Positions 4,730-38,105 of a DNA stretch of 64,000 bases are shown piece by piece. The DNA lies in contig CALWPL010000002.1 in assembly GCA_944383405.1 (NCBI GenBank), forward strand, positions 67,358-131,357, in the 5' to 3' direction. The notes beneath the pieces were generated by a model. That model had not been told where the DNA came from and made no database searches. It saw only the letters and a list, made by a program, of their open reading frames with translations. How positions within the stretch are numbered: position 1 is the stretch's first letter; every line of letters begins with the position of its first letter. Source of the DNA: an uncultured Clostridia bacterium. Lineage in GTDB: Bacteria > Bacillota > Clostridia > Christensenellales > UBA1242. The translations under genes and the position numbers were made by a program.

Positions 4730-5643
4730 CTAAATAAGTTAAAAATTTTCTTATTCTTTTTAAAATCAGGGTATGTTTCTTTTAGGGTTTTTAATACATC
4801 ATCATGAACTTCTTTATTATCAATTTTAAAGTGCTTAAAAGCAAATAGAATTTCTATATTAACTAAAAATTGCCATGCTCTTGAATATGAAAGTACTTTT
4901 GGGGAAATATTTTTTGCAATTTCGTTGTTGTCTTTCATGACTTTAAGTCCACTAAATCTTTTTTCAGAAAAATGCTTTTGAGAAGTCATACTACTTGCAT
5001 TTACAATATAAAGATAGGTAACAAGGTCAGAGTAGTAGAACTTTTCGCACTTTATTGCGTATTGTAAAACAAAATTAATATCTTCATGGTATTTGTATTC
5101 TGGGTTAAATTTAATTCCTTTTATCAACTCTTTTTTATAAATTTTATTCCATAATAGTCCGCCACCATATAGGGGATAGGCAAATAGACCCTTTAAAAAT
5201 TCGTCTTTATTAAGTTGCTTACCTTTTGCTCTTTTATAAAGATATTTATTTTGATATTTTGTATAATCTTTTTGTGGTTTAATTCTTTTAAAGTTAACTA
5301 TGCCAAGGTCAGCAAAGTCCATAGTTTTTACTAAGTTTTCAATATGATTTGGAAGAACATAGTCGTCAGCGTCAATAAAAGTTACATATTCGCCGCTTAT
5401 ATTGTCAAGCCCAGTATTTCTAGCCCCAGCAGCACCAGAGTTTTCTTGATTTATGACTTTAACTCGCTTGTCCTTTTCCATAAATTGACGGCAAACTTCT
5501 AAACTATTATCTTTTGAGCCGTCATTAATTATTATTAATTCAAAATTTTTATATGTTTGATTTAAAATACTTTCTATACAAGTTCCTACAACATTTTGTG
5601 CGTTGTAAACAGGCATAATAATAGAAACTAATTTATTTTGCAT
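4681..5643 (-). CDS. Family 2 glycosyltransferase
   Basis: The N-terminus IIMPVYNAQNVVGTCIESILNQTYKNFELIIINDGSKDNS and the DxD motif (FIDADDYV) are typical of GT2. Confidence 0.9.
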   Translation of the reverse strand: MQNKLVSIIMPVYNAQNVVGTCIESILNQTYKNFELIIINDGSKDNSLEVCRQFMEKDKRVKVINQENSGAAGARNTGLDNISGEYVTFIDADDYVLPNHIENLVKTMDFADLGIVNFKRIKPQKDYTKYQNKYLYKRAKGKQLNKDEFLKGLFAYPLYGGGLLWNKIYKKELIKGIKFNPEYKYHEDINFVLQYAIKCEKFYYSDLVTYLYIVNASSMTSQKHFSEKRFSGLKVMKDNNEIAKNISPKVLSYSRAWQFLVNIEILFAFKHFKIDNKEVHDDVLKTLKETYPDFKKNKKIFNLFRRLAGPAYQLMKLFKF

Positions 5644-5644
5644 A

Positions 5645-6820
5645 TTATTTTATCCTTGTTTTATAAGTTTTTATTGTTTCTTTATAGAAATTTTCATAGT
5701 CCAAACATACATTATCCCAGTCTTTTGGTATGCTTTGATACGCATTTTGTGAAATAGTACTTAATAATTCTTTATTATTCATTAATTCATATATTTTATC
5801 TGCGCAAAGGGAAGGGTCGTTTTCACATATAAAACCATTGTAATTATTTGTTATTCTTTCACAACTCGCCATATCTTTAAGAACTAGACTTGGGGTTTTA
5901 TTTAGGGCTGATTCAACTATAACAAGTCCATCACTATCTGAATAAGATGTAAAGAAAAATAAATTTGACGAAAAGTATAGAGAGTATAGTTCTTTTTGAG
6001 AACTGATAAAGCCTGTGAAAATTACATTTTCCTGTAAATTATTATTTTTTACATACTCTTGCAATTTGTCTTTTTGTTCGCCATCTCCTGCAAGTAAAAA
6101 TTTAAACTTATTTGTTTTTTGTTTGAGTATTTTTAGAGTTTTAAGTTGGAACATAATATTTTTTCTTTCTTGCAAATATCCGCTATACATAATAACAAAG
6201 TCGTCATTTTCTATATTAAATTTTGCTTTATTTTCAACAACTATTTTATTATCAAAGTTATAATCTTTTATTTCAATTCCGTTTCGAATTACTTGAATTG
6301 GAACTGTAATACCTAGATTTTCGGCGGTGGTTTTGGCAAGATTAGAAACTGCTATAACGCCATCGCATTTGTTTATTACTTTAACAACTCTTTTTAATGC
6401 GTAATTTATAAGTGGTTTAAACTTTAAACTTTTATAAACTAGTGGATAGATAGTATGAATTGTTGTTACAACTGGAATATTGTGTTTTCTTCTATACTTA
6501 AAGGCGTAATTTAATAATCCGTATTTTGTTTGGCAATGAATAATATCAGGATTATATTCTTTGAGTTTATTTTTAAAAGTTCTATCAGGAGTTGCAAGAT
6601 ATTCTTGTTTGCCAAATTTCAAACTTTTACATCATATAACTGGATAGGGAAGGTCGTTATCAGAGTAGTTTTTTAATGAGCCCTGTATTTTTGGACAGAA
6701 TAATTTAGCGTCAATTCTCTTTATATGTCTTTTCATACATTCGTGAATAACTCGCTCTCTCCCCCCCCCTATATAGGGAAGAAAGAGTCGCTAAACATCG
6801 CAAGTTTTATTTTATCCATT
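5645..6820 (-). pseudogene. GT4 (GT-B) glycosyltransferase with a disrupted N-terminus (frameshift plus in-frame TGA); only codons 5645-6622 are open
   Basis: The ATG at 6820-6818 reads MDKIKLAMFSDSFFPI and then hits a stop. The conserved GT4 N-terminus LPYIGGGRERVIHECMKR...DLPYPVI continues in the +1 frame. That frame then runs into TGA at 6634-6632, in frame with the 325-aa ORF. A G9 run lies inside the GGG codons. The C-terminal part has GT4 features (LLAGDGEQ..., SYSDSDGLVIVESA). Confidence 0.75.
6761..6769. repeat. Homopolymer C9 (G9 on the coding strand) inside the GT4 N-terminal region
   Basis: The sequence is ctctct-ccccccccc-tatata. It is the only long G/C homopolymer I noticed in this AT-rich window. 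Confidence 0.95.
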
Positions 6821-8163: not shown

Positions 8164-8604
8164 ATGAAAGTTGTTGCAACAAATAAATTTGCAAATTTTA
8201 ATTATTTTTTGTTAGAGACTTATGAAGCGGGAATAGTTTTGAAGGGGAGTGAGATTAAGTCTATAAGAAAAAACGGCATGACATTGACTGAAAGTTTTAT
8301 TCTAATTAAAGATAACAATGTGGTGCTAAAAAACTCTTTTGTCAAACCTTATCAAAATGTAAATGGGTTTTCTCCAAAGCCAGACAGGGATAGGGTTCTA
8401 CTTCTTAACAAGTCTGAAATTTTAAAGATTAGGCAAAAGGTAGAGCAAAAGGGGCTGACGGTTATTCCAGTTAAGGCGTACATTGAAAAAAACAGACTCA
8501 AAATTGAAATTGCGGTTGCAAAGGGTAAAAAACTCTACGACAAGAAAGAAGACAAGAAAGAAAAGGATATTGCTAGAACGCAAAGCCGACTTATGGGGGC
8601 GTAA
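8164..8604 (+). CDS. smpB: SsrA-binding protein SmpB
   Basis: 146 aa. The segment NKFANFNYFLLETYEAGIVLKGSEIKSIR is typical of SmpB. The gene sits directly upstream of tmRNA. Confidence 0.95.
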   Translation: MKVVATNKFANFNYFLLETYEAGIVLKGSEIKSIRKNGMTLTESFILIKDNNVVLKNSFVKPYQNVNGFSPKPDRDRVLLLNKSEILKIRQKVEQKGLTVIPVKAYIEKNRLKIEIAVAKGKKLYDKKEDKKEKDIARTQSRLMGA

Positions 8605-8960
8605 AGGTTTCGACAGGGCGGTTGAAGGAAATTTTAAGCGAGATGTAGTTTGATATTGGTCTACATTAAAAAACAATATCATTTTGCTAAGTGCAAACCA
8701 AAAAACAAATGCTAACATGGTAGCAGTTGCTGCCTAGTTTTAGCCGTTTGATAGACTGATCTTCTTGCAGTCATCTGTCAGGCGTCAGTTATGCAAGAGA
8801 ACTTTGTTCATTGTTTGGGGAACAATTTTACTAAATCAAACTCGTCTTTAAGTTTTTTGTTGGTTTAGAACATAAAGATTAAACTAAAAACTAACTGCTC
8901 TCGGAGAAAGGAATTTTCTTACCGTTTTGGACACGAGTTCGATTCTCGTCGCCTCCACCA
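8595..8960 (+). ncRNA. ssrA: tmRNA (SsrA), one-piece, 366 nt
   Basis: The 5' GGGGGCG pairs with the 3' CGCCUCC-ACCA, including the G3:U pair. The T-arm is ACGAG-TTCGATT-CTCGT. The 5' sequence GGGGGCGTAAAGGTTTCGACAGGG is canonical, and an internal tag reading frame ends in VAA-TAG. Confidence 0.95.
8693..8737 (+). other. tmRNA tag-peptide reading frame, predicted ANQKTNANMVAVAA + stop
   Basis: GCA AAC CAA AAA ACA AAT GCT AAC ATG GTA GCA GTT GCT GCC TAG. It has an Ala resume codon and a hydrophobic xVAA C-terminus typical of proteolysis tags. The exact resume codon was not verified. Confidence 0.6.
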
Positions 8961-9518: not shown

Positions 9519-11639
9519 ATGATTACGCAAGTTAGAAAAAGAGACGGAAAAATTGAAAATTATGATAGGCATAAGATAGCAAACGCAATATATAAGGCTG
9601 CTATCGCATGCGACGGGCATGACAAGGGAACTGCTGATAGGCTCGCAGAAGAAGTTGAAAGGATTATTAATAATAAGTATGGAAGCAAGATGCCAACAGT
9701 TGAAGAAATACAGGATACTGTTGAAAAGGTTTTAATTGAGAATAGGCATGCAAGAGTTGCAAAGGCGTTTATTCTTTATAGAGAAAAGAGAACGGCTGCA
9801 AGGGAACTCAATGCACTTACTGGGGCAACTATTGACCTTTTTACAAAATATCTTGACAGTGCTGACTGGGCAGTTAAGGAAAATGCAAATATGCAGCATA
9901 GTGTTGCAGGGCTTAATAATTATGTAAGGGAAACCTTTACAAAGAATTATTGGCTAAATGAGATATATCCACAAGAGATTAAAGAAGCACATGAGAGTGG
10001 GGCTATACATCTTCATGACTTAGGCTTTTTTGGTGCGTATTGTGTTGGTTGGGATTTAAGGCAGATTTTAACAGAAGGTTTTACAGGTGTTCCAAAGAAA
10101 ATGTCAAGCAATCCACCAAAGCACCTTAGGTCTTTCTTAGGACAGGTTGTAAATGCAACTTTTACTACACAAGGGGAAACTGCTGGGGCTCAGGCTTGGA
10201 GCAGTTTTGACACATATTGTGCTCCATTTGTAAGGGCTGACAATTTGACTTATGCACAAGTAAAGCAGGCTTTACAAGAATTCATTTTTAACATGAATGT
10301 TCCAACAAGGGTTGGGTTCCAATGTCCTTTTTCTAACATTACCCTTGACATCAAGTGCCCAAAGACCCTAAGAGACCAGCCGGTTGTCATTGGCGGACAA
10401 CTACAAGACACGACTTATGGCGAATATCAAGAAGAAATGGATATAATCAATAAGGCGTTCTGTGAAGTTATGCTTGAAGGAGATTCAAAGGGCAGGGTAT
10501 TTACTTTCCCAATTCCTACTATTAATGTTACAAAAGACCTTGACTGGAATAGTGATGTCGTAAATTCTATTATGGATATCACTTGTAAATATGGTATTCC
10601 TTATTTTGCAAACTATGTCAATTCTGACCTTTCGCCTGAGGACGCTGTTTCTATGTGTTGTAGATTAAGGCTTAATGTTTCAGAACTAAGGAAGCGTGGT
10701 GGCGGACTATTTGGCTCAAACCCACTTACAGGGTCGATAGGCGTTGTAACAATTAATCTTCCAAGAATTGGCTACCTTGCAGAAAATGAAAGTGCTTATT
10801 TTGCAATGCTTTCAAAGTATGCTGACCTTGCTAAAAACTCTCTTGAAATCAAGAGAAAAGTTGTTGAAAATCAGACAGAGAAAGGGCTTTATCCTTACTG
10901 CAAATTCTATTTAAAAGATGTTAAGAAAAGAACAGGGGGGTATTGGTCAAACCACTTTAATACAATAGGCATTGTTGGAATGAACGAAAGTTTGCTTAAT
11001 TTCCTTGGCAAAGACATTACAACAGACGAAGGACAGGCTTTTGCTCTTAAAGTTATGAATTATTTAAGGCAAAAAATGATTGAGTATCAAGAAGAAACAG
11101 GAAATCAATATAACCTTGAAGCAACCCCAGCAGAAGGCGTAAGTGCTAGACTTGCAAAACTTGATAAAAAGAGATTCCCAGACATTATTACCGCTGGAAA
11201 AAATGCTGTATCTTATACCAATTCAACACAAATTCCTGTTGAATATACAGACGATATATTTAAGGTTGTTTCTTTACAGGACGAACTTCAATCACTTTAT
11301 ACTGGCGGAACTGTTCTTCACTTGTATCTTGGGGAAAGAATTGAAGATAAGGAAGTTTGCAAGGCTTTAATTAGAAAGATTTTTGAAACATCAAAAATGC
11401 CTTATATTTCAATTACTCCTACCTTCAGTGTTTGTGAAGACCATGGCTACATTGCTGGCGAGCATTTCGAGTGCCCAGAGTGTGGGAAAAAGGCAGAAGT
11501 TTGGTCAAGAGTTGTAGGTTATTTAAGACCTGTTCAAGACTATAATGACAGCAAATTTGACGAGTATATGAATAGAAAGAAGTTTGTTATAGACGAAGAA
11601 GAAATTGAAGATTGTTTAAGTGATTTTAGGGCTGACTAG
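9519..11639 (+). CDS. nrdD: Anaerobic ribonucleoside-triphosphate reductase (class III RNR)
   Basis: 706 aa. It has an N-terminal ATP-cone (VRKRDGKIENYDRHKIANAI), a C-terminal Zn-ribbon CPECG and the glycyl-radical motif RVVGYLRPV. Confidence 0.95.
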   Translation: MITQVRKRDGKIENYDRHKIANAIYKAAIACDGHDKGTADRLAEEVERIINNKYGSKMPTVEEIQDTVEKVLIENRHARVAKAFILYREKRTAARELNALTGATIDLFTKYLDSADWAVKENANMQHSVAGLNNYVRETFTKNYWLNEIYPQEIKEAHESGAIHLHDLGFFGAYCVGWDLRQILTEGFTGVPKKMSSNPPKHLRSFLGQVVNATFTTQGETAGAQAWSSFDTYCAPFVRADNLTYAQVKQALQEFIFNMNVPTRVGFQCPFSNITLDIKCPKTLRDQPVVIGGQLQDTTYGEYQEEMDIINKAFCEVMLEGDSKGRVFTFPIPTINVTKDLDWNSDVVNSIMDITCKYGIPYFANYVNSDLSPEDAVSMCCRLRLNVSELRKRGGGLFGSNPLTGSIGVVTINLPRIGYLAENESAYFAMLSKYADLAKNSLEIKRKVVENQTEKGLYPYCKFYLKDVKKRTGGYWSNHFNTIGIVGMNESLLNFLGKDITTDEGQAFALKVMNYLRQKMIEYQEETGNQYNLEATPAEGVSARLAKLDKKRFPDIITAGKNAVSYTNSTQIPVEYTDDIFKVVSLQDELQSLYTGGTVLHLYLGERIEDKEVCKALIRKIFETSKMPYISITPTFSVCEDHGYIAGEHFECPECGKKAEVWSRVVGYLRPVQDYNDSKFDEYMNRKKFVIDEEEIEDCLSDFRAD

Positions 11640-14634: not shown

Positions 14635-15429
14635 ATGGCAAGAAAAATAGTTTTGACAAGCGGTAAAGGTGGGGTTGGAAAGACGACCATTTGTGCAAAT
14701 CTTGGGGTTGCACTTGCAAGACTTAACAAGAGAGTTGTGCTTGTGGATGTAGACATAGGTTTAAACAATTTAGATGTTGTAACAGGAGTTGAGAACAAGA
14801 TTGTTTATGACATAGTTGATGTAATAGAAGGGAAATGCAGGATAAAACAAGCGCTTATTCAGGACATTAATTTTCCAAATCTTTATATAATGCCGTCTGC
14901 TCATTCATATAATAAGGCACAGGTAACTGCTGAAAATGTAAAGAAGGTTATTGAAGGGCTAAATGACTATTTTGATTTTGTGCTTATTGATTGTCCAGCG
15001 GGGATTGACGAGCCATTTAAAAGGGCGGTGGGTGGAGCGGATGAGGCACTTGTTGTAGTTACTCCACATTTGTCGAGTTTAAGGGATGCGGATAAAGTAT
15101 TAATGATTCTTAGTAGTTATGACATTAAAGAGTATTCTCTTGTTGTAAATAGGGTTAGGGGAGACATGGTGCTTTATAAGGAAATGATAGATTGTAAGAA
15201 GATTTCTGAATTATTAGACGCAAGATTATCAGGTGTTATTCCAGAAGATGACAATATTACAACCTTTTTATCTGTTGGTAGGACTGTAAATAAAAGTTGC
15301 GAGTCTTATGAAGCCTTTATGATGCTTGCAAAAAATATTTTAGGAGAGACAAATAAGGTCTATGATTACACTGAAAAATACAGGGGGTTATTTGGTTTTT
15401 TTAAAAGAGCGTTAAGGAGAAAAATATAG
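14635..15429 (+). CDS. minD: Septum site-determining ATPase MinD
   Basis: It has the deviant Walker A SGKGGVGKTT, the IDCPAG motif, and a C-terminal amphipathic helix GLFGFFKRAL. Confidence 0.95.
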   Translation: MARKIVLTSGKGGVGKTTICANLGVALARLNKRVVLVDVDIGLNNLDVVTGVENKIVYDIVDVIEGKCRIKQALIQDINFPNLYIMPSAHSYNKAQVTAENVKKVIEGLNDYFDFVLIDCPAGIDEPFKRAVGGADEALVVVTPHLSSLRDADKVLMILSSYDIKEYSLVVNRVRGDMVLYKEMIDCKKISELLDARLSGVIPEDDNITTFLSVGRTVNKSCESYEAFMMLAKNILGETNKVYDYTEKYRGLFGFFKRALRRKI

Positions 15430-19997: not shown

Positions 19998-22900
19998 ATG
20001 ACAATGAAAAAACAAATACTCATATCAACATTTTTTATATTACTATCCCTTAGTCTATTTGTAATATCAATTTACATAGCCTTGTCAGCCATGAATCACA
20101 GTTTTAATAGTAGTGTAAATATTTATTATGAAGCACCAATAAATGTAGCATTAAATTTAGTTAATAATGAAGGTAGCAATATTACAGAAGATAATGTAAG
20201 TATTGTTCTTAATCCAGAGGATATAACAGAGTTTAGAATAGACGGAGTTGTACCAGAGATAGTAGATGGGACAACTACTAATTTGGATGATATAACAAAT
20301 AGTAATAATCAGGAGTTTTACTATTTTTCAACCGTACCACAAGATAGTAGTGGTAATGTAATAACAGGTAGTAGTGGAATAGAAACAGCAAGTAGTGTTA
20401 TGTCAAGTGAAAACTTGCAGACAGTTTCAGACGAACTTACATATACAGATAAAGAAAATGCAAATATATTTGCACAAAGATATTATGTGTCAACAGCACA
20501 GAATCCTGTTTGGTATGAAATGCCAAGTGAGATGACACAACTATATTCAACCTTTTTAACGCCAAATTTAACAGATTTTGCAGATGGACAAAGTATAAGC
20601 GGAGATGTAGTAATTTCTCATAGCCTAAATGGTAGTATTACAGATAGAGCATTTTATCAAAATAGAACAATTACAAGTGTTGTCATACCAAATACTATAA
20701 CAAATATAGGGGAATATAGTTTTAATTATAATTATATTTTGTCAAATGTAGTACTCCCAAGTAGCTTAACAAGTATAGGTTCTTATGCTTTTAATTCTTG
20801 TTGCGGGCTTAGTAATATAGTAATTCCAAATAATGTAACAAGTGTAGGAAGTAGTGCGTTTCGATATTGTTACAAATTAGTTGAGATATATAATTTAAGT
20901 AGTCTAAATATAAGGCTAAATAATAGTAGCAATGGTTACGCAGGATATTATGCAGATTATGTATATAATACTTCCACTCCATCAGGAAAACAGTTTATTG
21001 TTGATAACGGATATGTAATGTATAACGATAATGATAGTTATTATTTACTTGGCTATATAGGGAATGAAACAGAACTAATACTTCCAACAACAACTTATAA
21101 CTATGAGATATATGAATATGCATTTTATAATAATACAAATATAACGGGTGTAACATTTTCTAGTAGTATAACAAGTATAGGTTCTTCTGCATTTAGAAGT
21201 TGTAGCAATCTAAATGGAACACTTAGTCTTCCAAGTACACTAACAAGTATAAGTAATTATGCATTTTATAATTGTAGTAGCCTAACAGGGAATCTAGTCA
21301 TCCCAGAAGGGGTAACAAGTATAGGTTCTTGTGCATTTGATGGTTGTAGTAGTCTAAATGGGACATTGACACTCCCAAGTACATTAACAAGCATAGGCAA
21401 TGATGCATTTGAAGGTTGTAGTAATCTAACAGGAAATCTAGCCATCCCAGAAGAGGTAACAAGTATAGGTACTTCTGCATTTTCTGGTTGTAGTAGTTTA
21501 AATGGTACATTGACACTCCCAAGTACACTAACAAGTATAGGCAATTCTGCATTTAGAAGTTGTAGTAGTCTAACAGGAAATCTATTCATCCCAGAAGGGG
21601 TAACAAGTATAAGTAATTATGCATTTGATGGTTGTAGCAATCTAAATGGAACACTTAGTCTTCCAAGTACACTAACAAGTATAGGCACTTATGCATTTTA
21701 TGATTGTAGTAGCCTAACAGGGAATCTAGTCATCCCAGAAGGGGTAACAAGTATAGGCAATAGGGCATTTTATAATTGTAGCAGTCTAACAGGGGATTTA
21801 GTCATCCCAGAAGGGGTAACAAGTATAGGCACTTATGCATTTTATAATTGTAGTAGTCTAAATGGAACACTTAGTCTTCCAAGTACATTAACAAGTATAG
21901 GGGATTTTGCATTTTATTATTGTAGTAGTCTAACAGGGAATCTAGTCATCCCAGAAGGAGTAACAAGTATAGGAAATTATGCATTTTATAATTGTAGTAG
22001 TCTAAATGGAACATTGACACTCCCAAGTACACTTACAAGTATAGGAGATGATGCATTTAGAAATTGTAGTAATCTAACAGGGGATTTAGTCATTCCAGAA
22101 GGGGTAACAAGTATAGGCTTTCGCGCATTTTATGGTTGCAGTAGTCTAAATGGGACATTGACACTCCCAAGTACACTAACAAGTATAGGAGAGGGAGTAT
22201 TTTATGATTGTAGTAGCCTAACAGGGAATTTAGTCATTCCAGAAGGCGTAACAAGTATAGGCGCTTCTGCATTTTCTGGTTGTAGTAATCTAACAGGGAA
22301 TTTAGTCATCCCAGAAGGGGTAACAAGTATAGGAGAGTATGCATTTATAGATTGTAGTAGTCTTGAAAGTATTATAATTCCAGAAGGGATAACAAGTATA
22401 GGGTCAAACGCATTTTCTGGTTGTATTCGTTTAAGGATTTATTGTGAAGTGGCAAGTCAACCTAATGGATGGAGTAGTAATTGGAATTATTCAAATAGAC
22501 CTGTATACTGGGCGGGGGAATGGCATTATGAGAATGGAGTGCCGGTAGCCAATAGCGTTAATCTAAGTTTTGTAAACAATGAAGGTAGTCAGATAAATAA
22601 TAGTACAACAAAAGTAGTGTTTAATGAAGATTACACTAAATTTAGGATAGATGGTATTGTACCTGAGACTAGTACTGGGGTAACAAGTAACCTAGCAGAA
22701 TTAACAAGCACTAGTGGGCAAGAGTTTTATTTCTTTTCAAGTGTTAGTGATTGGGATGTAACAACTGATGATTTTGATAGATACTATGTATCAACAGAAG
22801 CAAATCCAATATGGTATGATGTGCCAAGCGAACAAACAACATTATATTCAATTTTCTTAACGCCGAATTGTACAGATGGGACTAGAAATACAGCGGGAAG

Positions 22901-31358: not shown

Positions 31359-32450
31359 ATGGCAGCAAAAAAGGAAGAAGTAAAAGAGAAACTTGACATT
31401 AAACCAAAGAACAAGGAAGATAAGATAAAACTTGCAGAGCAGGCGATTTTGCAAATTGAAAAGCAGTTTGGTAAGGGCGCTATTATGAAAATGGGCGAGA
31501 GAAGGCATGAAAAGGTAGATGTCATACCAACTGGCTGTTTGGTGCTTGACTATGCACTTGGGATTGGCGGCGTGCCAAAGGGGAGAATAATTGAAATTTA
31601 TGGGCCAGAGTCTAGCGGTAAGACAACGGTTTCGCTTCACATTATAGCACAGGCACAGAAATTGGGCGGAATGGCGGCGTTTATTGATGCTGAGCACGCT
31701 CTTGACCCTGTTTATGCTGAAAATCTTGGGGTAAATCTTGACGAATTATATGTTTCTCAGCCAGACAATGGAGAGCAGGCACTTGATATTTGTGATAAAC
31801 TTGTACAAAGCAATGGGTTTGATGTTATAGTCATTGACTCGGTGGCGGCACTTGCACCAAAGGCAGAGATTGAAGGGGAAATGGGAGATAATTTCATCGG
31901 TTTGCAGGCAAGGCTTATGAGTCAAGCGATGAGAAAACTTGCAGGAATTATAAGTAAGAGTAACACATGTGTTATTTTTATAAATCAACTTCGTGATAAG
32001 GTAGGCGTTATGTTTGGGTCTCCCGAGACGACTGCCGGTGGAAAGGCGTTGAAGTTCTATTCAAGCGTTAGAATGGATGTAAGAAGGATTGATTCTATAA
32101 AAGACGGAAGTGATATTATTGGAAATAGAACAAGAGTTAAAGTTGTAAAAAACAAACTTGCTCCACCATTTAAGACAGCAGATTTTGACATTATCTATGG
32201 TAAAGGTGTTTCAAACACCGGGTGTATTATTGACCTTGCTGTAGAAAATGGGGTAGTAAATAAGAGCGGAGCATGGTTTTCGTATAATGGAGAAAAAATT
32301 GGTCAAGGTAAGGAAAATGTTAAGATTTATCTTGATAGACATACTGATATTCGAGATGAAATTGAAAGTCGTGTAAAAGAAGTTCTTGACTGCGACAAAA
32401 AGACGGATTCTGAAGTTGATAACAAGGAAGAGCAAGAAAGTAGTGAGTAA
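31359..32450 (+). CDS. recA: Recombinase RecA
   Basis: Walker [20 protein letters not shown], and the L2 region [19 protein letters not shown]. Confidence 0.98.
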
Positions 32451-32641: not shown

Positions 32642-34261
32642 ATGAAAAAAGGATTAAAAGGATTTTTAGTTAGTTTAGTTCTAATACTTTGTGTTTGTTT
32701 TCTTGGGGCGTGTAGTTTACAAGGAAAGAGTGCTTATGATATTGCCGTTGATAACGGGTTTCAAGGGAGTGAGACAGAGTGGCTTGAAAGTTTAAAGGGG
32801 CAAGATGGTAAAGACGGACAAGATGGTGGAAAGAGTGCTTATGAGATTGCTGTTGACAACGGGTTTGTTGGAACTGAACAAGAATGGCTTGAGAGTTTAA
32901 AAGGTCAAAACGGAACGGATGGAAAGGATGGGCAAGACGGAGCACAGGGAGCACCTGGGCTTAGTGGAGATTTAAGTGCAAGTGAATTATTTAATCTTGC
33001 TGTTGAGTTTGGCTTGTATGAAAACAATGCTGCTGGGTATCAAAAGTTTTTGGAAGATTATTTTTTAGATACTGCTGATACTACAATTGAGAGAGTTGCA
33101 AACAAATGCCTAAATCAAGTAATTTCAATTTATTGTCAAGGGGAAGATGGCTTATATACTGGCTCTGGCGTGTTTTATGAGATAAATAGAGATGATAATT
33201 ACGCTTATGTAATTACAAATTATCATGTAGTGGTTCTTGAAAAGACGACAGGCAGTGGGAGTGTTTTTGCTCCATCGCAAGTTGAATATGTAATTTCAGA
33301 CGAAATTTGTTGTTATATATATGGTAATGAGACTTTGTCTGGGAGCAACGGTAACTATGATTATGGAGATGGGGTGTTTTTGGCTGAATATGTGGGTGGT
33401 TCTGCTGAATATGACATTGCGGTACTAAAAATTAGCGGAGAAAATTTTGATAAAATAAAAAATAGCAGTATACAAGAAGTAAGTTTTGCTAATTCAGATG
33501 ATTTACAGGCAGGTTCAACTGCTGTTGCTATTGGTAATCCAATGGGACAGGGAATTTCTGTAACTAATGGGGTTGTAAGCAAGGTGTCAGAGAAGATTTC
33601 TGTTGAAATAGCAGGAGAGTATAGAACGCTTACTTGTCTTAGAATGGATACTTCAATCAATGGTGGTAATAGTGGGGGCGGAGTGTTTAATCTAAATGGC
33701 GAACTTATTGGTATTGCAAACGCAAAATATTCGGCTTCTGCTTATGAAAATGTTTCAAATGCAATTTTATCAAATAATGTAAAGGCTGTTAGTGAAAATA
33801 TTATTTACTACTATGAGTTGGGTGGGAGTCGTGAAAGCGTTGGTGTTCACAAGTTTTTACTTGGTTTTAGTTATACAAGTTGTGATAATATGAATACTTA
33901 TGACGAAGTAACGGGAACTAATACTTTGAGTTCAAAGATTCTTGTAGTGTCAGTAAATGCTGGAAGCAAGGCAGAGACAATGGGGCTACTTGTAAATGAT
34001 AAAGTTATTGGCGTTGTTATCACAAGAAATCAAGCAAGTCAAACTATTTATTTTGAAAATTATAATGAACTAGCAAATGTTTTACTTACGCTTCATGAAG
34101 GCGATAGTATTTCGCTTGTAGTTGAAAGGGAAAATGAAAGCGGCCAAACAAGTAATTTGACTCTAAATAGTTACACAATTACTGCTGACGATTTTACTAT
34201 TTCAAAAGATAATGCTTTGACAAGTTCTACAACAACTCCTGAAACCGAAGAAGGTCAATAA
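32642..34261 (+). CDS. Lipoprotein: trypsin-like (S1C/HtrA-type) serine protease with a duplicated collagen-like N-terminal module and a PDZ-like C-terminus
   Basis: I prefer the start at MKKGLKG (SD AAGGAAG). The lipobox is FLGAC. Two KSAY[DE]IAVDNGF.G.E.EWLESLKGQ.G.DG.DG modules follow. The protease core reads VITNYHVV ... DIAVLKI ... TSINGGNSGGGVFNLNGELIGI (catalytic GNSGG). The ORF track starts at 32609 on a TTG. Confidence 0.8.
   Translation: MKKGLKGFLVSLVLILCVCFLGACSLQGKSAYDIAVDNGFQGSETEWLESLKGQDGKDGQDGGKSAYEIAVDNGFVGTEQEWLESLKGQNGTDGKDGQDGAQGAPGLSGDLSASELFNLAVEFGLYENNAAGYQKFLEDYFLDTADTTIERVANKCLNQVISIYCQGEDGLYTGSGVFYEINRDDNYAYVITNYHVVVLEKTTGSGSVFAPSQVEYVISDEICCYIYGNETLSGSNGNYDYGDGVFLAEYVGGSAEYDIAVLKISGENFDKIKNSSIQEVSFANSDDLQAGSTAVAIGNPMGQGISVTNGVVSKVSEKISVEIAGEYRTLTCLRMDTSINGGNSGGGVFNLNGELIGIANAKYSASAYENVSNAILSNNVKAVSENIIYYYELGGSRESVGVHKFLLGFSYTSCDNMNTYDEVTGTNTLSSKILVVSVNAGSKAETMGLLVNDKVIGVVITRNQASQTIYFENYNELANVLLTLHEGDSISLVVERENESGQTSNLTLNSYTITADDFTISKDNALTSSTTTPETEEGQ
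32723..32941 (+). repeat. Tandem duplication (about 105 bp x 2) encoding the SAYxIAVDNGF...GxDGxDG module
   Basis: ggaaagagtgcttatga..attgc.gttga.aacgggttt...tggcttga.agtttaaa.gg occurs at 32723 and again at 32828. Confidence 0.9.
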
Positions 34262-34596: not shown

Positions 34597-34625
34597 TTGA
34601 CAGTTTAGTTTTAATGACATATACT
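34597..34625 (+). promoter_or_regulatory. Candidate sigma-A promoter (TTGACA-17-TATACT) upstream of the HTH gene
   Basis: TTGACA at 34597-34602 and TATACT at 34620-34625. The Cheo-box palindrome lies about 30 nt downstream. Confidence 0.45.
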
Positions 34626-34657
34626 ACAAAATATGGAAAGAGAGTTCTTTTTTTTAA

Positions 34658-34689
34658 CAATTTATTCGAACAAATGTTCGAATAAATTG
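34658..34689. promoter_or_regulatory. 32-bp perfect palindrome containing a Cheo/LexA-type box CGAACAAATGTTCG
   Basis: CAATTTATTCGAACA-AA-TGTTCGAATAAATTG has perfect 15-bp arms. The core matches the Firmicutes LexA (DinR) consensus CGAAC-N4-GTTCG. It lies 44 bp upstream of the ATG at 34733. Confidence 0.6.
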
Positions 34690-34732
34690 GCTTGAAAGTT
34701 TTTAACAAATAAGAATAATTAAAAGGATAAAA

Positions 34733-35044
34733 ATGAAAAAGTATTTGATATTTGCTATTTTACTTGAACTTGGGAAACACGATATTGTGCCAGCAAAAGT
34801 TCTTGCTGACAAATTTGAGATTTCAACTAGGAGTGTATTTAGGTATCTTAGCGAACTTGAAAGTGCTGGGATTCCTACTTTTTCTAAACTTGGAAAAAAT
34901 GGTGGGGTAGGGTTAAAGAAGAATTTTACTCTTGAAAGTTTATTATTAAGTGAAAGCGATAAAACATTTTTAAAGTCGGTCATTAATAGTTTAAATGTTG
35001 ATGATAGTAAAAAGAAATATTACATAGAGAAGTTATTATTATAA
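34733..35044 (+). CDS. Small HTH (HTH_11 / YafY-N-terminal-like) transcriptional regulator, 103 aa, lacking a WYL or other ligand domain
   Basis: ILLELGKHDIVPAKVLADKFEISTRSVFRYLSELESAGIP is a typical DeoR/YafY-type winged HTH. SD AAAGGA. Confidence 0.7.
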   Translation: MKKYLIFAILLELGKHDIVPAKVLADKFEISTRSVFRYLSELESAGIPTFSKLGKNGGVGLKKNFTLESLLLSESDKTFLKSVINSLNVDDSKKKYYIEKLLL

Positions 35045-35165: not shown

Positions 35166-35430
35166 TTAAATTACATACTTTACTTTTTACTATCTAGTCT
35201 TTTAACTAACATATTTTACTCATTATTATTTACTCTTTCTTATTTGCTTTTTATTATTCAGTATTTAACTAGCATATTTTACTCTTTTTTATTTACTCAT
35301 TATTATTTATTTTTTTTACTATCAATTATTTTAGATTGTATATTTTACTCTTTGTTGCTCACTTTTTATTATTTACATTTATTATTATGCATTTAGATTA
35401 CATATTTTATTTTTTATTATTTACGGGCTT
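35166..35430 (+). repeat. Degenerate AT-rich tandem repeat, about 5 units of 60-66 bp, strongly T/C-biased on the plus strand
   Basis: Unit heads TTTA[AG]A[CT]T[AG]NCATATTTTACTC occur at about 35166, 35202, 35265, 35331 and 35393, each followed by ttattatttac-type tails. Confidence 0.75.
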
Positions 35431-35498: not shown

Positions 35499-38105
35499 AT
35501 GGCAAAGTTTAAAAAAATTTTAAGATTTCTAAGTCCTGGCAGTAGTGATTTTGAAAGCCTTTTTGCAGGGAACGGGAGCATTGGTATAACCTTAATGGGT
35601 GGGGCGAGAAAGGAAATTGTAAAAATAAAAAGCATTGATGTTATGAACTCTGGGGTTTGTCTTGATAGTCAAAATTTAGGTAAAGAAGATAATAGAAAAA
35701 GTAATTATGAGGCTATAAAAGATTTGATGAAAAACAAAAATTATATAAAAGCACAAGAATATTTAGGAGAGTTTTTAGCAAAGAACAACTTTTATGGTAC
35801 TCTTAGTTCTAGTAAGGTTATATGTTTATTTGAAATAATACATAAAGAGTTAAAAGTAGTAAGTGATTATTTTAGGCAGGTTAATCTTGAAACTGGGGAA
35901 ATTGAGACAAGGTTTGCAGATAATCTTGGCGTTATGTCAAGAAAATGTTTTGTAGATAGAGAAAGTGATATTATTTGTTTTAAACTAATGGGAGAAAATA
36001 GAAAGATTGAAGTAGAGTTAAAACTTAGTCCTGTTGATGAAGGGCTTTTTAAGGTCAAAGTTGAAAGGAATAGCATTGTTTTTTTTAAAGATTATTATGG
36101 CTGTGTTTTATATCTTGAAAGTGATGGGCAAGTGAGTTTAACGATTGATAGTTTGATAGTAGATAATGCAAGTTACATTAATATTTATTTAAAAACTTTT
36201 GTTGTAAAAGATAATGATTTTAATAACGGTGTTAGTGGTGGGGGAAGTGTTATTGGTGGAATAGAAAAATATCAAAGGGATATTTTAGATAAAAAATTAA
36301 AGGAAGAATTGCTATCTATAAAAAGTGATGAACAAATTAAAAGAGATACTAGTTTAAAAGAAGAATCAGCATTTATAAAAGTTGATGAAAATACTGAAAG
36401 TGATAATAGTTTAAAAGATAGTATGCTGTGGGATGACGAACAAAGCGTAGTAAATAGTAATATTGAATCTAAAAGTAGCAAAATAATTAAAGAAAGTAAA
36501 GATGAAATTAGAAAGAAGGATAATAAATTTTTTACAAATATTATAGAGCAAGCGATATGTAGAGTAAAAGATAGTTTAAAAAAGGCAAATTATGACAAGT
36601 TATTTAGAAGAAGTAGTCAAGAGTTTTTGAAATTAGCAAACTTTCAAAATGTTGAATTTTTTTCAAAGGGAAATAAAACTATTGATGAAGAACTAATTGA
36701 TGTAAAAAAGGGAAGAATTAATGCAAGTTTAATTGAGAGTTTATATAATTTTGGGAAGTACCTATTTTTAAGTGGGTTTGATGGAAGGTTTGAAGGTGGG
36801 TTGTTTGGGAGTAATTGCTTGCAACTAGCAACAAGCACAGGGGTTATTGGGAGTATTTTTTCGCTTTTTTGTGGCATGAGTCAAAATGTAAAGGAGTATA
36901 TTCTTAGTTTTTATAGAAAAATTCCTGAGTATAGAGAAAATGCAGAAAAAATATATGGTTTGCAAGGCGTCTTTATTCCGATGTATCAAGACGAAGATAG
37001 CGGGGGGATAGTAATAAACAATGTCCAAAATCTGTACGACAAAAATGAAGGGAGTAAACTTTGTCTTTTAATTTATCTTTATTATAGAATTACAGGGGAT
37101 AGTTCAATACTTGACAAAGGGTATGAGTTAATATCTAATATTGGAGATTTTTACGAAAATTTCTTTATAAAAGATAATGCTACAAATGTTTTTGGGTCTC
37201 CGTTTGGGGTTAGTTGTAATAATAAATGCAAAAATACAGGGCTTAATATCGCTTCAAACTTAACGAGTGATTTTGCGGGAGCAAGTATTGTTTTTAAGGT
37301 ATTATGTGATTTGTGTGTTGAGTGTAACGACACGAAAAATTTAAAAAGGTGGGAAGAAGATTTATATTTAATTCCTAGTTTTGAAATTGACAAAAATGGA
37401 GTTATAAAGGAATTTTGTTTAAGCAAGTTTGAAAGGCAGGAAGAAAATACGAGCATTGACTATTTGTTTCCTTATAACTACGGTATAAAAGTTGGAGAAA
37501 ACAAAAAAGATTATGAAACGCTAGTTGTAAATTCTATTAAGGATAGGTTTTTAGGGGCATTAGGGAATTTTGACGCACAGGGGTTATCTAAACTTATGCT
37601 AGCACTCTTTACTTGTGGGGAAGGAAGGGATGGTGGGGAAATTTTAAAGACTTTAATTAGAAATTTTATTTCTCCTAGTTTAATTTTTTTTAATAGCGAT
37701 TACTACAATATGGGAGTTGGTAAAAAAGATAAAAAAGAAAATTTGTCAATTATTAATAATTTAATTTTTTGCATGGCAATACAGAATATGTTTGTTGTTG
37801 CAAATAAAAATTCGCTATATTTATTTGATAATTTGCCAGAATTTTTAAGTCGTGGAAGGTTAGTGAATTTAAAGGTGTCAAAAGACATTACTTTATCAAT
37901 TATTTACAATCTCAAAAGGGGAGTAGCAAAGATTAAGATAAAGTCAAGTGTTGATAACTTTATTAATATATATTTGCCAAGAAATTTAAAAAAGGTTAAG
38001 GGAAAAGACTTGCCGGAACTTAACAATATAGAAAATTCTTTAAAAGGAGTTTTTTTACAAAAAAATAAAGTAAAGAAAATTAAAGTGGTTTTCTTTAATA
38101 GATAG
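35499..38105 (+). CDS. Divergent glycoside-hydrolase-like protein (GH95/GH65-N-like N-terminus) with a charged low-complexity insert
   Basis: 868 aa. The N-terminus FAGNGSIGITLMGGARKEIVKI resembles the GH95 motif PxGNGxLGAMxxGG...E. An S/K/E-rich insert lies at about 36234-36534. The functional assignment is weak. Confidence 0.35.
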   Translation: MAKFKKILRFLSPGSSDFESLFAGNGSIGITLMGGARKEIVKIKSIDVMNSGVCLDSQNLGKEDNRKSNYEAIKDLMKNKNYIKAQEYLGEFLAKNNFYGTLSSSKVICLFEIIHKELKVVSDYFRQVNLETGEIETRFADNLGVMSRKCFVDRESDIICFKLMGENRKIEVELKLSPVDEGLFKVKVERNSIVFFKDYYGCVLYLESDGQVSLTIDSLIVDNASYINIYLKTFVVKDNDFNNGVSGGGSVIGGIEKYQRDILDKKLKEELLSIKSDEQIKRDTSLKEESAFIKVDENTESDNSLKDSMLWDDEQSVVNSNIESKSSKIIKESKDEIRKKDNKFFTNIIEQAICRVKDSLKKANYDKLFRRSSQEFLKLANFQNVEFFSKGNKTIDEELIDVKKGRINASLIESLYNFGKYLFLSGFDGRFEGGLFGSNCLQLATSTGVIGSIFSLFCGMSQNVKEYILSFYRKIPEYRENAEKIYGLQGVFIPMYQDEDSGGIVINNVQNLYDKNEGSKLCLLIYLYYRITGDSSILDKGYELISNIGDFYENFFIKDNATNVFGSPFGVSCNNKCKNTGLNIASNLTSDFAGASIVFKVLCDLCVECNDTKNLKRWEEDLYLIPSFEIDKNGVIKEFCLSKFERQEENTSIDYLFPYNYGIKVGENKKDYETLVVNSIKDRFLGALGNFDAQGLSKLMLALFTCGEGRDGGEILKTLIRNFISPSLIFFNSDYYNMGVGKKDKKENLSIINNLIFCMAIQNMFVVANKNSLYLFDNLPEFLSRGRLVNLKVSKDITLSIIYNLKRGVAKIKIKSSVDNFINIYLPRNLKKVKGKDLPELNNIENSLKGVFLQKNKVKKIKVVFFNR

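Follow-up and report, generated by a model that had tools for sequence, protein, structure and literature searches.

A conserved LexA-type box upstream of a stand-alone YafY-type winged-HTH gene family in uncultured Clostridia

The closest described counterparts of the DNA element analyzed here are the Cheo or DinR boxes, the operators of the LexA repressor in Firmicutes. The C. difficile lexA and recA targets of SPR assays read GAACAAATGTTT, and their core GAACAAATGTT is common to the box of our window (PMC4234289), by which we mean throughout the whole stretch of 64,000 nucleotides that was analyzed. The footprint consensus of Firmicutes lexA promoters, TACGAACATATGTTCGTA, also fits the window box (PMC2248561), and the published LexA consensus is degenerate at position 13 (PMC4234289, PMC2248561). 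Compared with these sites and with the B. subtilis consensus CGAACATATGTTCG, the box in front of the HTH gene of the window has the same 14-bp core with the preferred A6 and T9, shows the tolerated variants A1 and T13, likewise overlaps or adjoins the promoter and is likewise conserved in orthologous promoters. What differs from the known Cheo/DinR regulons is the target, a small YafY-N-type HTH gene and not a repair gene, lexA or a division-inhibitor gene. Moreover, recA, ruv and pcrA are boxless here, the window copy of the box is extended to a 32-bp palindrome, and binding by LexA is a prediction from the sequence.

The product of the target gene leads to a second described system, the YafY/WYL factors PafBC, DriD, SiwR, BrxR and CapW. 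The whole 103-aa protein corresponds to their N-terminal HTH module of about 100 residues. So far the WYL family has been associated with damage responses that do not involve LexA (PafBC, DriD) and with the control of phage defence (BrxR, CapW). Members of the YafY/WYL group have links to the DNA-damage response, and their HTH binds palindromes of about 19–20 bp (PMC9186387, PMC10693628). In contrast to these factors, the 103-aa protein has no WYL or WCX domain and hence would have neither ligand or ssDNA sensing nor the dimer scaffold of the family type. PafBC and DriD do not depend on LexA, whereas the short HTH gene is apparently under a LexA-type box, and unlike its full-length WYL relatives it has no TGACA-N5/6-TGTCA palindrome upstream.

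A third parallel is offered by secondary regulators under LexA control in Firmicutes, for instance mraZ, whose sites LexA binds in gut metagenomes (PMC3998124), and by SOS checkpoint genes such as yneA. The logic would be the same, in that derepression gives rise to a small regulator and not to a repair enzyme. The protein family is a different one, and the link to division or to the cell wall consists here in the gene neighbourhood alone. In the LexA-regulon literature that we searched, no YafY- or WYL-type gene appears as a LexA target.

The palindrome and the gene downstream of it

The locus comprises the following features.

34597 to 34625, plus strand: sigma-70-type promoter-like site TTGACA-17-TATACT (promoter scan, relatives)
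34635 to 34654, plus strand: leader segment with a weak A/G-rich stem and a U-run 3′ of it (RNA folds)
34658 to 34689, no strand assigned: perfect palindrome, arms of 15 nt, centre of 2 nt (sequence, Markov simulations)
34667 to 34680, no strand assigned: Cheo/LexA-type box CGAACAAATGTTCG, the conserved core of the putative operator (motif scan, conservation)
34723 to 34727, plus strand: ribosome-binding site AAGGA, 5 nt 5′ of the ATG (sequence)
34733 to 35044, plus strand: stand-alone winged-HTH gene of 103 codons, HTH_11 followed by three C-terminal helices (Pfam, PADLOC, AlphaFold, homologues)

The palindrome reads CAATTTATTCGAACA-AA-TGTTCGAATAAATTG and thus has two perfect arms of 15 nt each, which flank a centre of 2 nt within its 32 bp, just as the original prediction had it. 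It is the longest perfect inverted repeat of the window, the runner-up having arms of 11 nt. When the window was simulated 200 times with a first-order Markov model, arms of 15 nt never came up. The core at 34667–34680 matches CGAAC-N4-GTTCG without a mismatch, and within the 64 kb it is the only match even if one mismatch is allowed. The centre had been read beforehand as a LexA (DinR)-type site; the exact match and the strong conservation upstream of the orthologues (see below) bear this out. Distances had been given as about 44 bp to the HTH gene and about 30 nt from the promoter; we measure 43 nt between the end of the palindrome and the ATG at 34733 and 32 nt between the −10 hexamer and the start of the palindrome. 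The box itself is located 52 nt 5′ of the ATG and 41 nt 3′ of the −10, which corresponds to about +36 to +49 of the transcript predicted for the window lineage.

TTGACA-17-TATACT is the top promoter-like match between 34200 and 35600, with 11 of 12 positions, and TTGACA-17/18-TATAAT is present at the equivalent place in the related loci L011, L016, L019 and L017–L021. The HTH gene is probably transcribed from this site, and the start of transcription is predicted near 34632. In the four nearest lineages a terminator-like hairpin (A-tract, GGGG..CCCC, U-tract) follows about 15 nt past the strong promoter, and the Cheo box comes about 10 nt past this hairpin. The weak stem of the window is its decayed counterpart. 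The hairpin could serve as attenuation or as a 5′ stabilizer. Its positions are as follows.

Window, 34635–34654
L011, 9855–9882
L016, about 9735–9760
L019, about 5641–5671

The 103-aa open reading frame scores 28.6 bits against Pfam HTH_11 (cut-off 25), and its residues 6–87 align with positions 6–85 of the 229-position PADLOC model for WYL regulators (E = 2e-10). The AlphaFold model (pLDDT 86.8) consists of a winged helix and then three helices. The N-terminal HTH_11 winged helix of the YafY/WYL regulators is therefore present, as was claimed for this gene, and the WYL domain with the usual WCX domain is missing since the protein stops at residue 103. The 24 close homologues are all 101–123 aa long and have an invariant recognition helix. 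An exhaustive profile search returned 4314 relatives at E ≤ 0.001; nearest are further proteins of about 100 aa, and then come proteins of about 300 aa whose first 100 or so residues align with the whole short-form profile. All seven of the tested 300-aa relatives have the architecture HTH_11+WYL+WCX. Searches of the PDB by sequence and by fold gave generic winged-helix matches only (best E-values 0.08 and 5e-3), and in plasmid and phage collections we met YafY genes, either full-length or split, along with unrelated HTH genes, and no cultured short form. Orthologues come from 18 species genomes, all of them MAGs of uncultured “Christensenella sp.” or “Clostridia bacterium” with 27–43% G+C. 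On these sequence comparisons the protein is the DNA-binding module of YafY/WYL regulators maintained as an old and stable stand-alone family. The earlier label of a truncated member is thus misleading, as the family of about 100 aa is no recent truncation.

Conservation of the box and its place at the promoter

A box of the form [C/A]GAACA[A/T][A/T]TGTT[C/T]G is found 29–265 nt 5′ of the start codon in all 21 clade lineages, and it is the sole strong site in each clade locus of about 20 kb. We aligned eight divergent intergenic regions with a mean identity of 47%; apart from T[C/A]GAACATATGTTTGAC and the −10 no block is invariant, and no second conserved motif lies between the HTH gene and the neighbouring GH95-like gene in this alignment. 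A metagenome scan with distant short forms (33–63% identity, 25–36% G+C) added 80 loci, and clustering at 90% identity then gave 31 short-form lineages. The box [C/A]GAACAnnTGTT[C/T]G is present within two mismatches in 28 of these clusters, down to a protein identity of 33%, and within three mismatches in one more; the other two have no box. Throughout the 425 kb of short-form loci all strong matches (PWM score ≥16) lie 5′ of the short-form gene. Positions 1 (C/A) and 13 (C/T) are variable, T(−1), A6 and T9 are nearly invariant, and the 16-bp model of the box is T[CA]GAACANNTGTT[CT]GA. This is the phylogenetic footprint which is to be expected of a Firmicutes LexA operator. The two losses are L038 (about 1238–1286) and L115 (about 70–269), where the gene is intact and a TTGACA-17-TATAAT promoter is kept; the spacer of L038 resembles a decayed copy of the box found in its relatives L037 and L040.

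In the short-form lineages the box touches the core promoter in every case, and four arrangements are seen. Most commonly box and −35 form one fused sequence (GTTTGACA-17-TATAAT). In others it lies in the spacer and overlaps the −10 (TTGACA-4-AGAACAnATGTTCTATAAT), or it is placed 7 or 8 nt past the −10 at the transcription start, or, as in the window, it comes after a short leader hairpin. A sequence that is kept while its position around the promoter shifts is the signature of a repressor operator under selection. A placement in the promoter or leader, as expected of a Firmicutes LexA operator, is therefore found in the window, and its relatives show overlap with the −35, with the spacer/−10 or with +1.

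Outside the 14-bp core, the symmetric flanks TTTTAT...ATAAAA are confined to the nearest lineages. They are missing in L020, in L021 and in the entire −35-fused group, and in most lineages the right flank is replaced by the −35 hexamer. The extended symmetry is specific to the window's lineage. The idea put forward before, that symmetry beyond the core marks a separate specificity, is thus not borne out, as the flanks vary by lineage. Between the window and L011 a compensatory change of TA to AT is present on both arms of the palindrome. The window locus also exists as a strain variant, L006, in whose box (416–429) the centre is flipped from AA to TT (CGAACATTTGTTCG versus CGAACAAATGTTCG). The flipped centre is the reverse complement of the loop, which fits what is expected of hairpin-templated switching, and together with the double-arm change of L011 it is typical of template-switch correction in quasi-palindromes. 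For this reason the perfect 32 bp need not reflect a second specificity.

These observations also bear on the idea that the palindrome is no DNA operator and instead forms a hairpin in the 5′ leader of the RNA, for stability or attenuation. In the window lineage the palindrome is indeed transcribed, with a predicted RNA stem of 14 bp; for the 114-nt leader the folding energy is −25.4 kcal/mol and the z-score −4.9, and from the window to L011 the two arms change in a compensatory manner. But the arm symmetry can just as well come from the template-switch correction that the L006 centre fits, it does not extend to the lineages without symmetric flanks, and the stem is not followed by a U-run. 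In most lineages the box is found 5′ of the start site or overlapping the −35, so that no hairpin is transcribed, and a role of the RNA therefore cannot be the conserved function. We consider this explanation highly improbable. An intrinsic terminator or attenuator at the palindrome was rejected as well; the stem has 25% G+C and is followed by GGCUUGAAAG, and a terminator scan made no call. Likewise rejected was a Spo0A box (TGNCGAA) overlapping the left flank, which fits few lineages only.

Possible binders of the box

We suggest, at a probability of roughly 70%, that the site is a LexA-type operator and that a conserved WYL-less family of YafY-type HTH proteins is under SOS control in uncultured Clostridia. 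The 14-bp core would be the Firmicutes LexA (Cheo/DinR) repressor operator which controls the small winged-HTH gene. As long as the cell is undamaged, a LexA dimer would occupy the box. In the window lineage it would act as a roadblock at about nt 36 of the transcript, a place 3′ of the start site and thus a weaker position for repression; in most related lineages it would meet the −35, the spacer/−10 or the start site directly. Upon DNA damage RecA, whose gene is located 2.2 kb upstream, would become active, LexA would undergo self-cleavage and synthesis of the HTH protein would follow. Without a ligand-sensing WYL/WCX part the protein should be an always-active DNA binder, and by analogy with the full-length relatives its targets are likely to be TGACA-N5/6-TGTCA-type sites elsewhere in the genome. 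The binding by LexA, the induction by damage and the later action of the protein are what we infer from the box and the protein family. SOS boxes of B. subtilis are known that begin with AGAAC, and the variable positions 1 and 13 fit the tolerance of LexA.

Several points speak against LexA. T(−1), A6 and T9 are tighter than in known LexA regulons. Furthermore, no lexA gene was found by phmmer and tblastn in the six-frame open reading frames of the window or in the fetched loci, about 0.9 Mb of related DNA, when B. subtilis and E. coli LexA served as queries and LexA_DNA_bind and S24 peptidase were sought. The edge proteins RNase R and PcrA led to matching contigs of 8–10 kb only, which brought no new repair genes. 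In favour of LexA, on the other hand, the organisms are spore-forming-type Clostridia, as the window encodes a sporulation-type sigma factor and, in L062, SpoIVA adjoins the HTH gene; to our knowledge, LexA is near-universal in such Clostridia. The recA gene of the window is located as follows.

31359 to 32450, plus strand: recA without a Cheo box of its own, 2.2 kb 5′ of the HTH gene (open reading frame, synteny)

The motif scans of the window found no Cheo box 5′ of recA, ruvC/A/B or pcrA, in agreement with what had been noticed before for recA, ruvC and pcrA. The canonical SOS genes of the window, at which a LexA operator should be seen, thus lack it, and this is atypical for a Firmicutes SOS regulon; uvrB, like lexA, does not occur in the DNA covered. 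Throughout most clade lineages recA is a syntenic neighbour of the HTH gene. Ten of the 12 readable clade recA upstream regions have no box, and no conserved motif is shared across the recA upstream regions of the 12 lineages. A point for LexA is that L026 (about 14641–14654) has a credible site, AGAACAAAAGTTTG, 52 nt 5′ of recA, with two mismatches and the same T(−1)/A(+1) flanks, and in L030 (11809–11822) a degenerate CAAACATATGTTTT 114 nt 5′ of recA.

Help in the assignment comes from the full-length relatives. The Cheo box is present in none of the 29 long-form (HTH_11+WYL+WCX) clusters. Instead, among those whose upstream sequence was long enough, 25 of 26 long forms carry TGACA-N5/6-TGTCA at most 200 nt 5′ of their own start, as against 1 of 31 short forms, and this palindrome often overlaps a TTGACA −35. 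Examples from the set L036–L115 are the following.

L052, about 58 nt 5′ of 4001: TGACA-N5/6-TGTCA
L096, about 86 nt 5′ of the start: TGACA-N5/6-TGTCA
L103, about 83 nt 5′ of 797: TGACA-N5/6-TGTCA

Since the AT-rich long forms L041, L058 and L093 follow the same pattern, base composition is not the cause of the difference. By sequence TGACA-N5/6-TGTCA is probably the autoregulatory operator of this subfamily of full-length WYL regulators. It was considered for the window HTH gene too and discarded, as it is absent from the upstream region. Exact copies are missing both from the window and from 430 kb of short-form loci, and matches with one mismatch occur in the window at chance level and all in coding sequence. 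Because there is no such site in the nearby intergenic DNA, the targets of the short protein are not local or neighbouring genes.

The original prediction had weighed LexA against the HTH protein as reader of its own operator. LexA is now the likelier of the two, and the own operator has lost ground, given that the long forms carry TGACA-N5/6-TGTCA. For the HTH protein to bind here the short form, having lost the WYL/WCX dimer scaffold, would have to dimerize differently and read GAACA-N2-TGTTC, with the likeness to LexA sites being coincidental. Such autoregulation is not without appeal. A palindrome overlapping the promoter looks like the rule of the family, as 25 of 26 long forms have one, the inner ACA/TGT triplets are common to the Cheo-type box and the TGACA..TGTCA operator, and typical LexA sites vary more at A6, T9 and T(−1) than this box does. 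No second conserved intergenic motif offers itself as the protein's own site, and the missing lexA and the recA gene outside the control of the box would be accounted for. In addition, the wing residue R53 is conserved in the long forms only, and in view of this difference a changed specificity of the short form is conceivable. Yet E29, S31, R33, Y36, R37 and Y38 of helix 3 and the wing glycines are identical in the two forms, and still the long forms do not have the box. Half-site centres lie 7 bp from each other in the Cheo box but 10–11 bp in the family operator, and the degenerate positions are the very ones which LexA tolerates. A chance match to the LexA consensus at three outer half-site positions and in the spacing would be required, which we estimate at about 1 in 250. 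As the same recognition helix goes with another palindrome and another spacing in the long forms, we hold self-binding at the Cheo box to be unlikely. One could also imagine an operator shared by both proteins, where LexA represses and the induced HTH protein, as a competitor that cannot be cleaved, shuts off the response by negative feedback. This would explain the exact LexA-type core together with the additional invariant T(−1), A6 and T9, that is, the ACA/TGT reading of the family. But the spacing of the half-sites is again unlike that of the family operator, and the searched DNA contains no other Cheo boxes and hence no visible regulon on which the feedback could act. A shared operator seems very improbable to us.

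Coming back to LexA as the binder of the box, the short protein might be an SOS-induced sensorless WYL module which occupies the TGACA-N5/6-TGTCA operators of full-length regulators or pairs with these regulators. Damage would then be relayed from LexA to the WYL regulons, and in these uncultured Clostridia this protein, not recA, would be the conserved output of LexA. We regard such a relay as possible though rather doubtful. The comparison leads to two predictions, namely that LexA binds the palindrome and that the HTH of the family reads TGACA-N5/6-TGTCA. If LexA does bind, the WYL-less YafY-type family of about 100 aa would be a conserved member of the SOS regulon in many uncultured AT-rich gut Clostridia, in genomes where recA often has no LexA box, and the classical LexA pathway would be joined to the WYL regulator family. 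If instead the HTH protein itself binds the box, a non-LexA protein would read a LexA operator, which would be even more surprising.

Genomic neighbourhood and further observations

The window is ordinary chromosome and encodes RNase R, smpB/tmRNA, nrdDG, ruvCAB, queA-tgt, recA and an HtrA-like protease as well as a sporulation-type sigma factor, mgsA and pcrA. The synteny of GH95-like gene, HTH gene and then protease gene and recA is conserved in the clade.

35499 to 38105, plus strand: GH95-like gene with Glyco_hyd_65N_2 and a GH95 catalytic domain (Pfam, synteny)

This conserved neighbour is divergent from the HTH gene in most clade lineages. In the divergent layout the box faces the HTH promoter and is mostly about 140–360 bp away from the start codon of the GH95-like gene (54 bp in L031, 106 bp in L023); the GH95-like gene is probably not controlled by the box. 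In the distant lineages L037–L051, L054, L062, L110 and L032 the short HTH gene lies in a conserved setting of gyrB, a murG-like GT28 gene, ddl, a Mur ligase gene and an alpha/beta hydrolase gene, and spoIVA adjoins it in L062. The gyrB and murG-like intergenic regions have no motifs in common.

Between the HTH gene and the GH95-like gene a degenerate tandem array (35179–35424) with a period of about 63/129 contains the recurring CATATTTTACTC...TTATTATTTACTC. Unrelated tandem arrays are located near the HTH gene in L011 (9423–9613) and L016 (9234–9426). We rejected the repeats as part of the box/HTH system as they are lineage-specific and unrelated between lineages.

An Rfam scan of the window returned tmRNA only. 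The tmRNA gene (8595–8960, 154 bits) directly follows smpB, the two together spanning 8164–8960. At 52421–52469 there is an inverted repeat TTAGCACTC-N9-GAGTGCTAA just 5′ of the open reading frame 52511–53560, which is followed by grpE, a 612-aa open reading frame and a DnaJ-type gene. We take the repeat to be a CIRCE element, thus an ordinary heat-shock operator, and the operon to be hrcA-grpE-dnaK-dnaJ. Finally, tandem repeats also occur in coding sequence. A leucine-rich-repeat adhesin-like gene of 1110 codons contains 15.6 copies of a 72-bp unit (21241–22363), and the N-terminal part of a secreted trypsin-like protease is encoded with two copies of a 105-bp unit (32723–32931).
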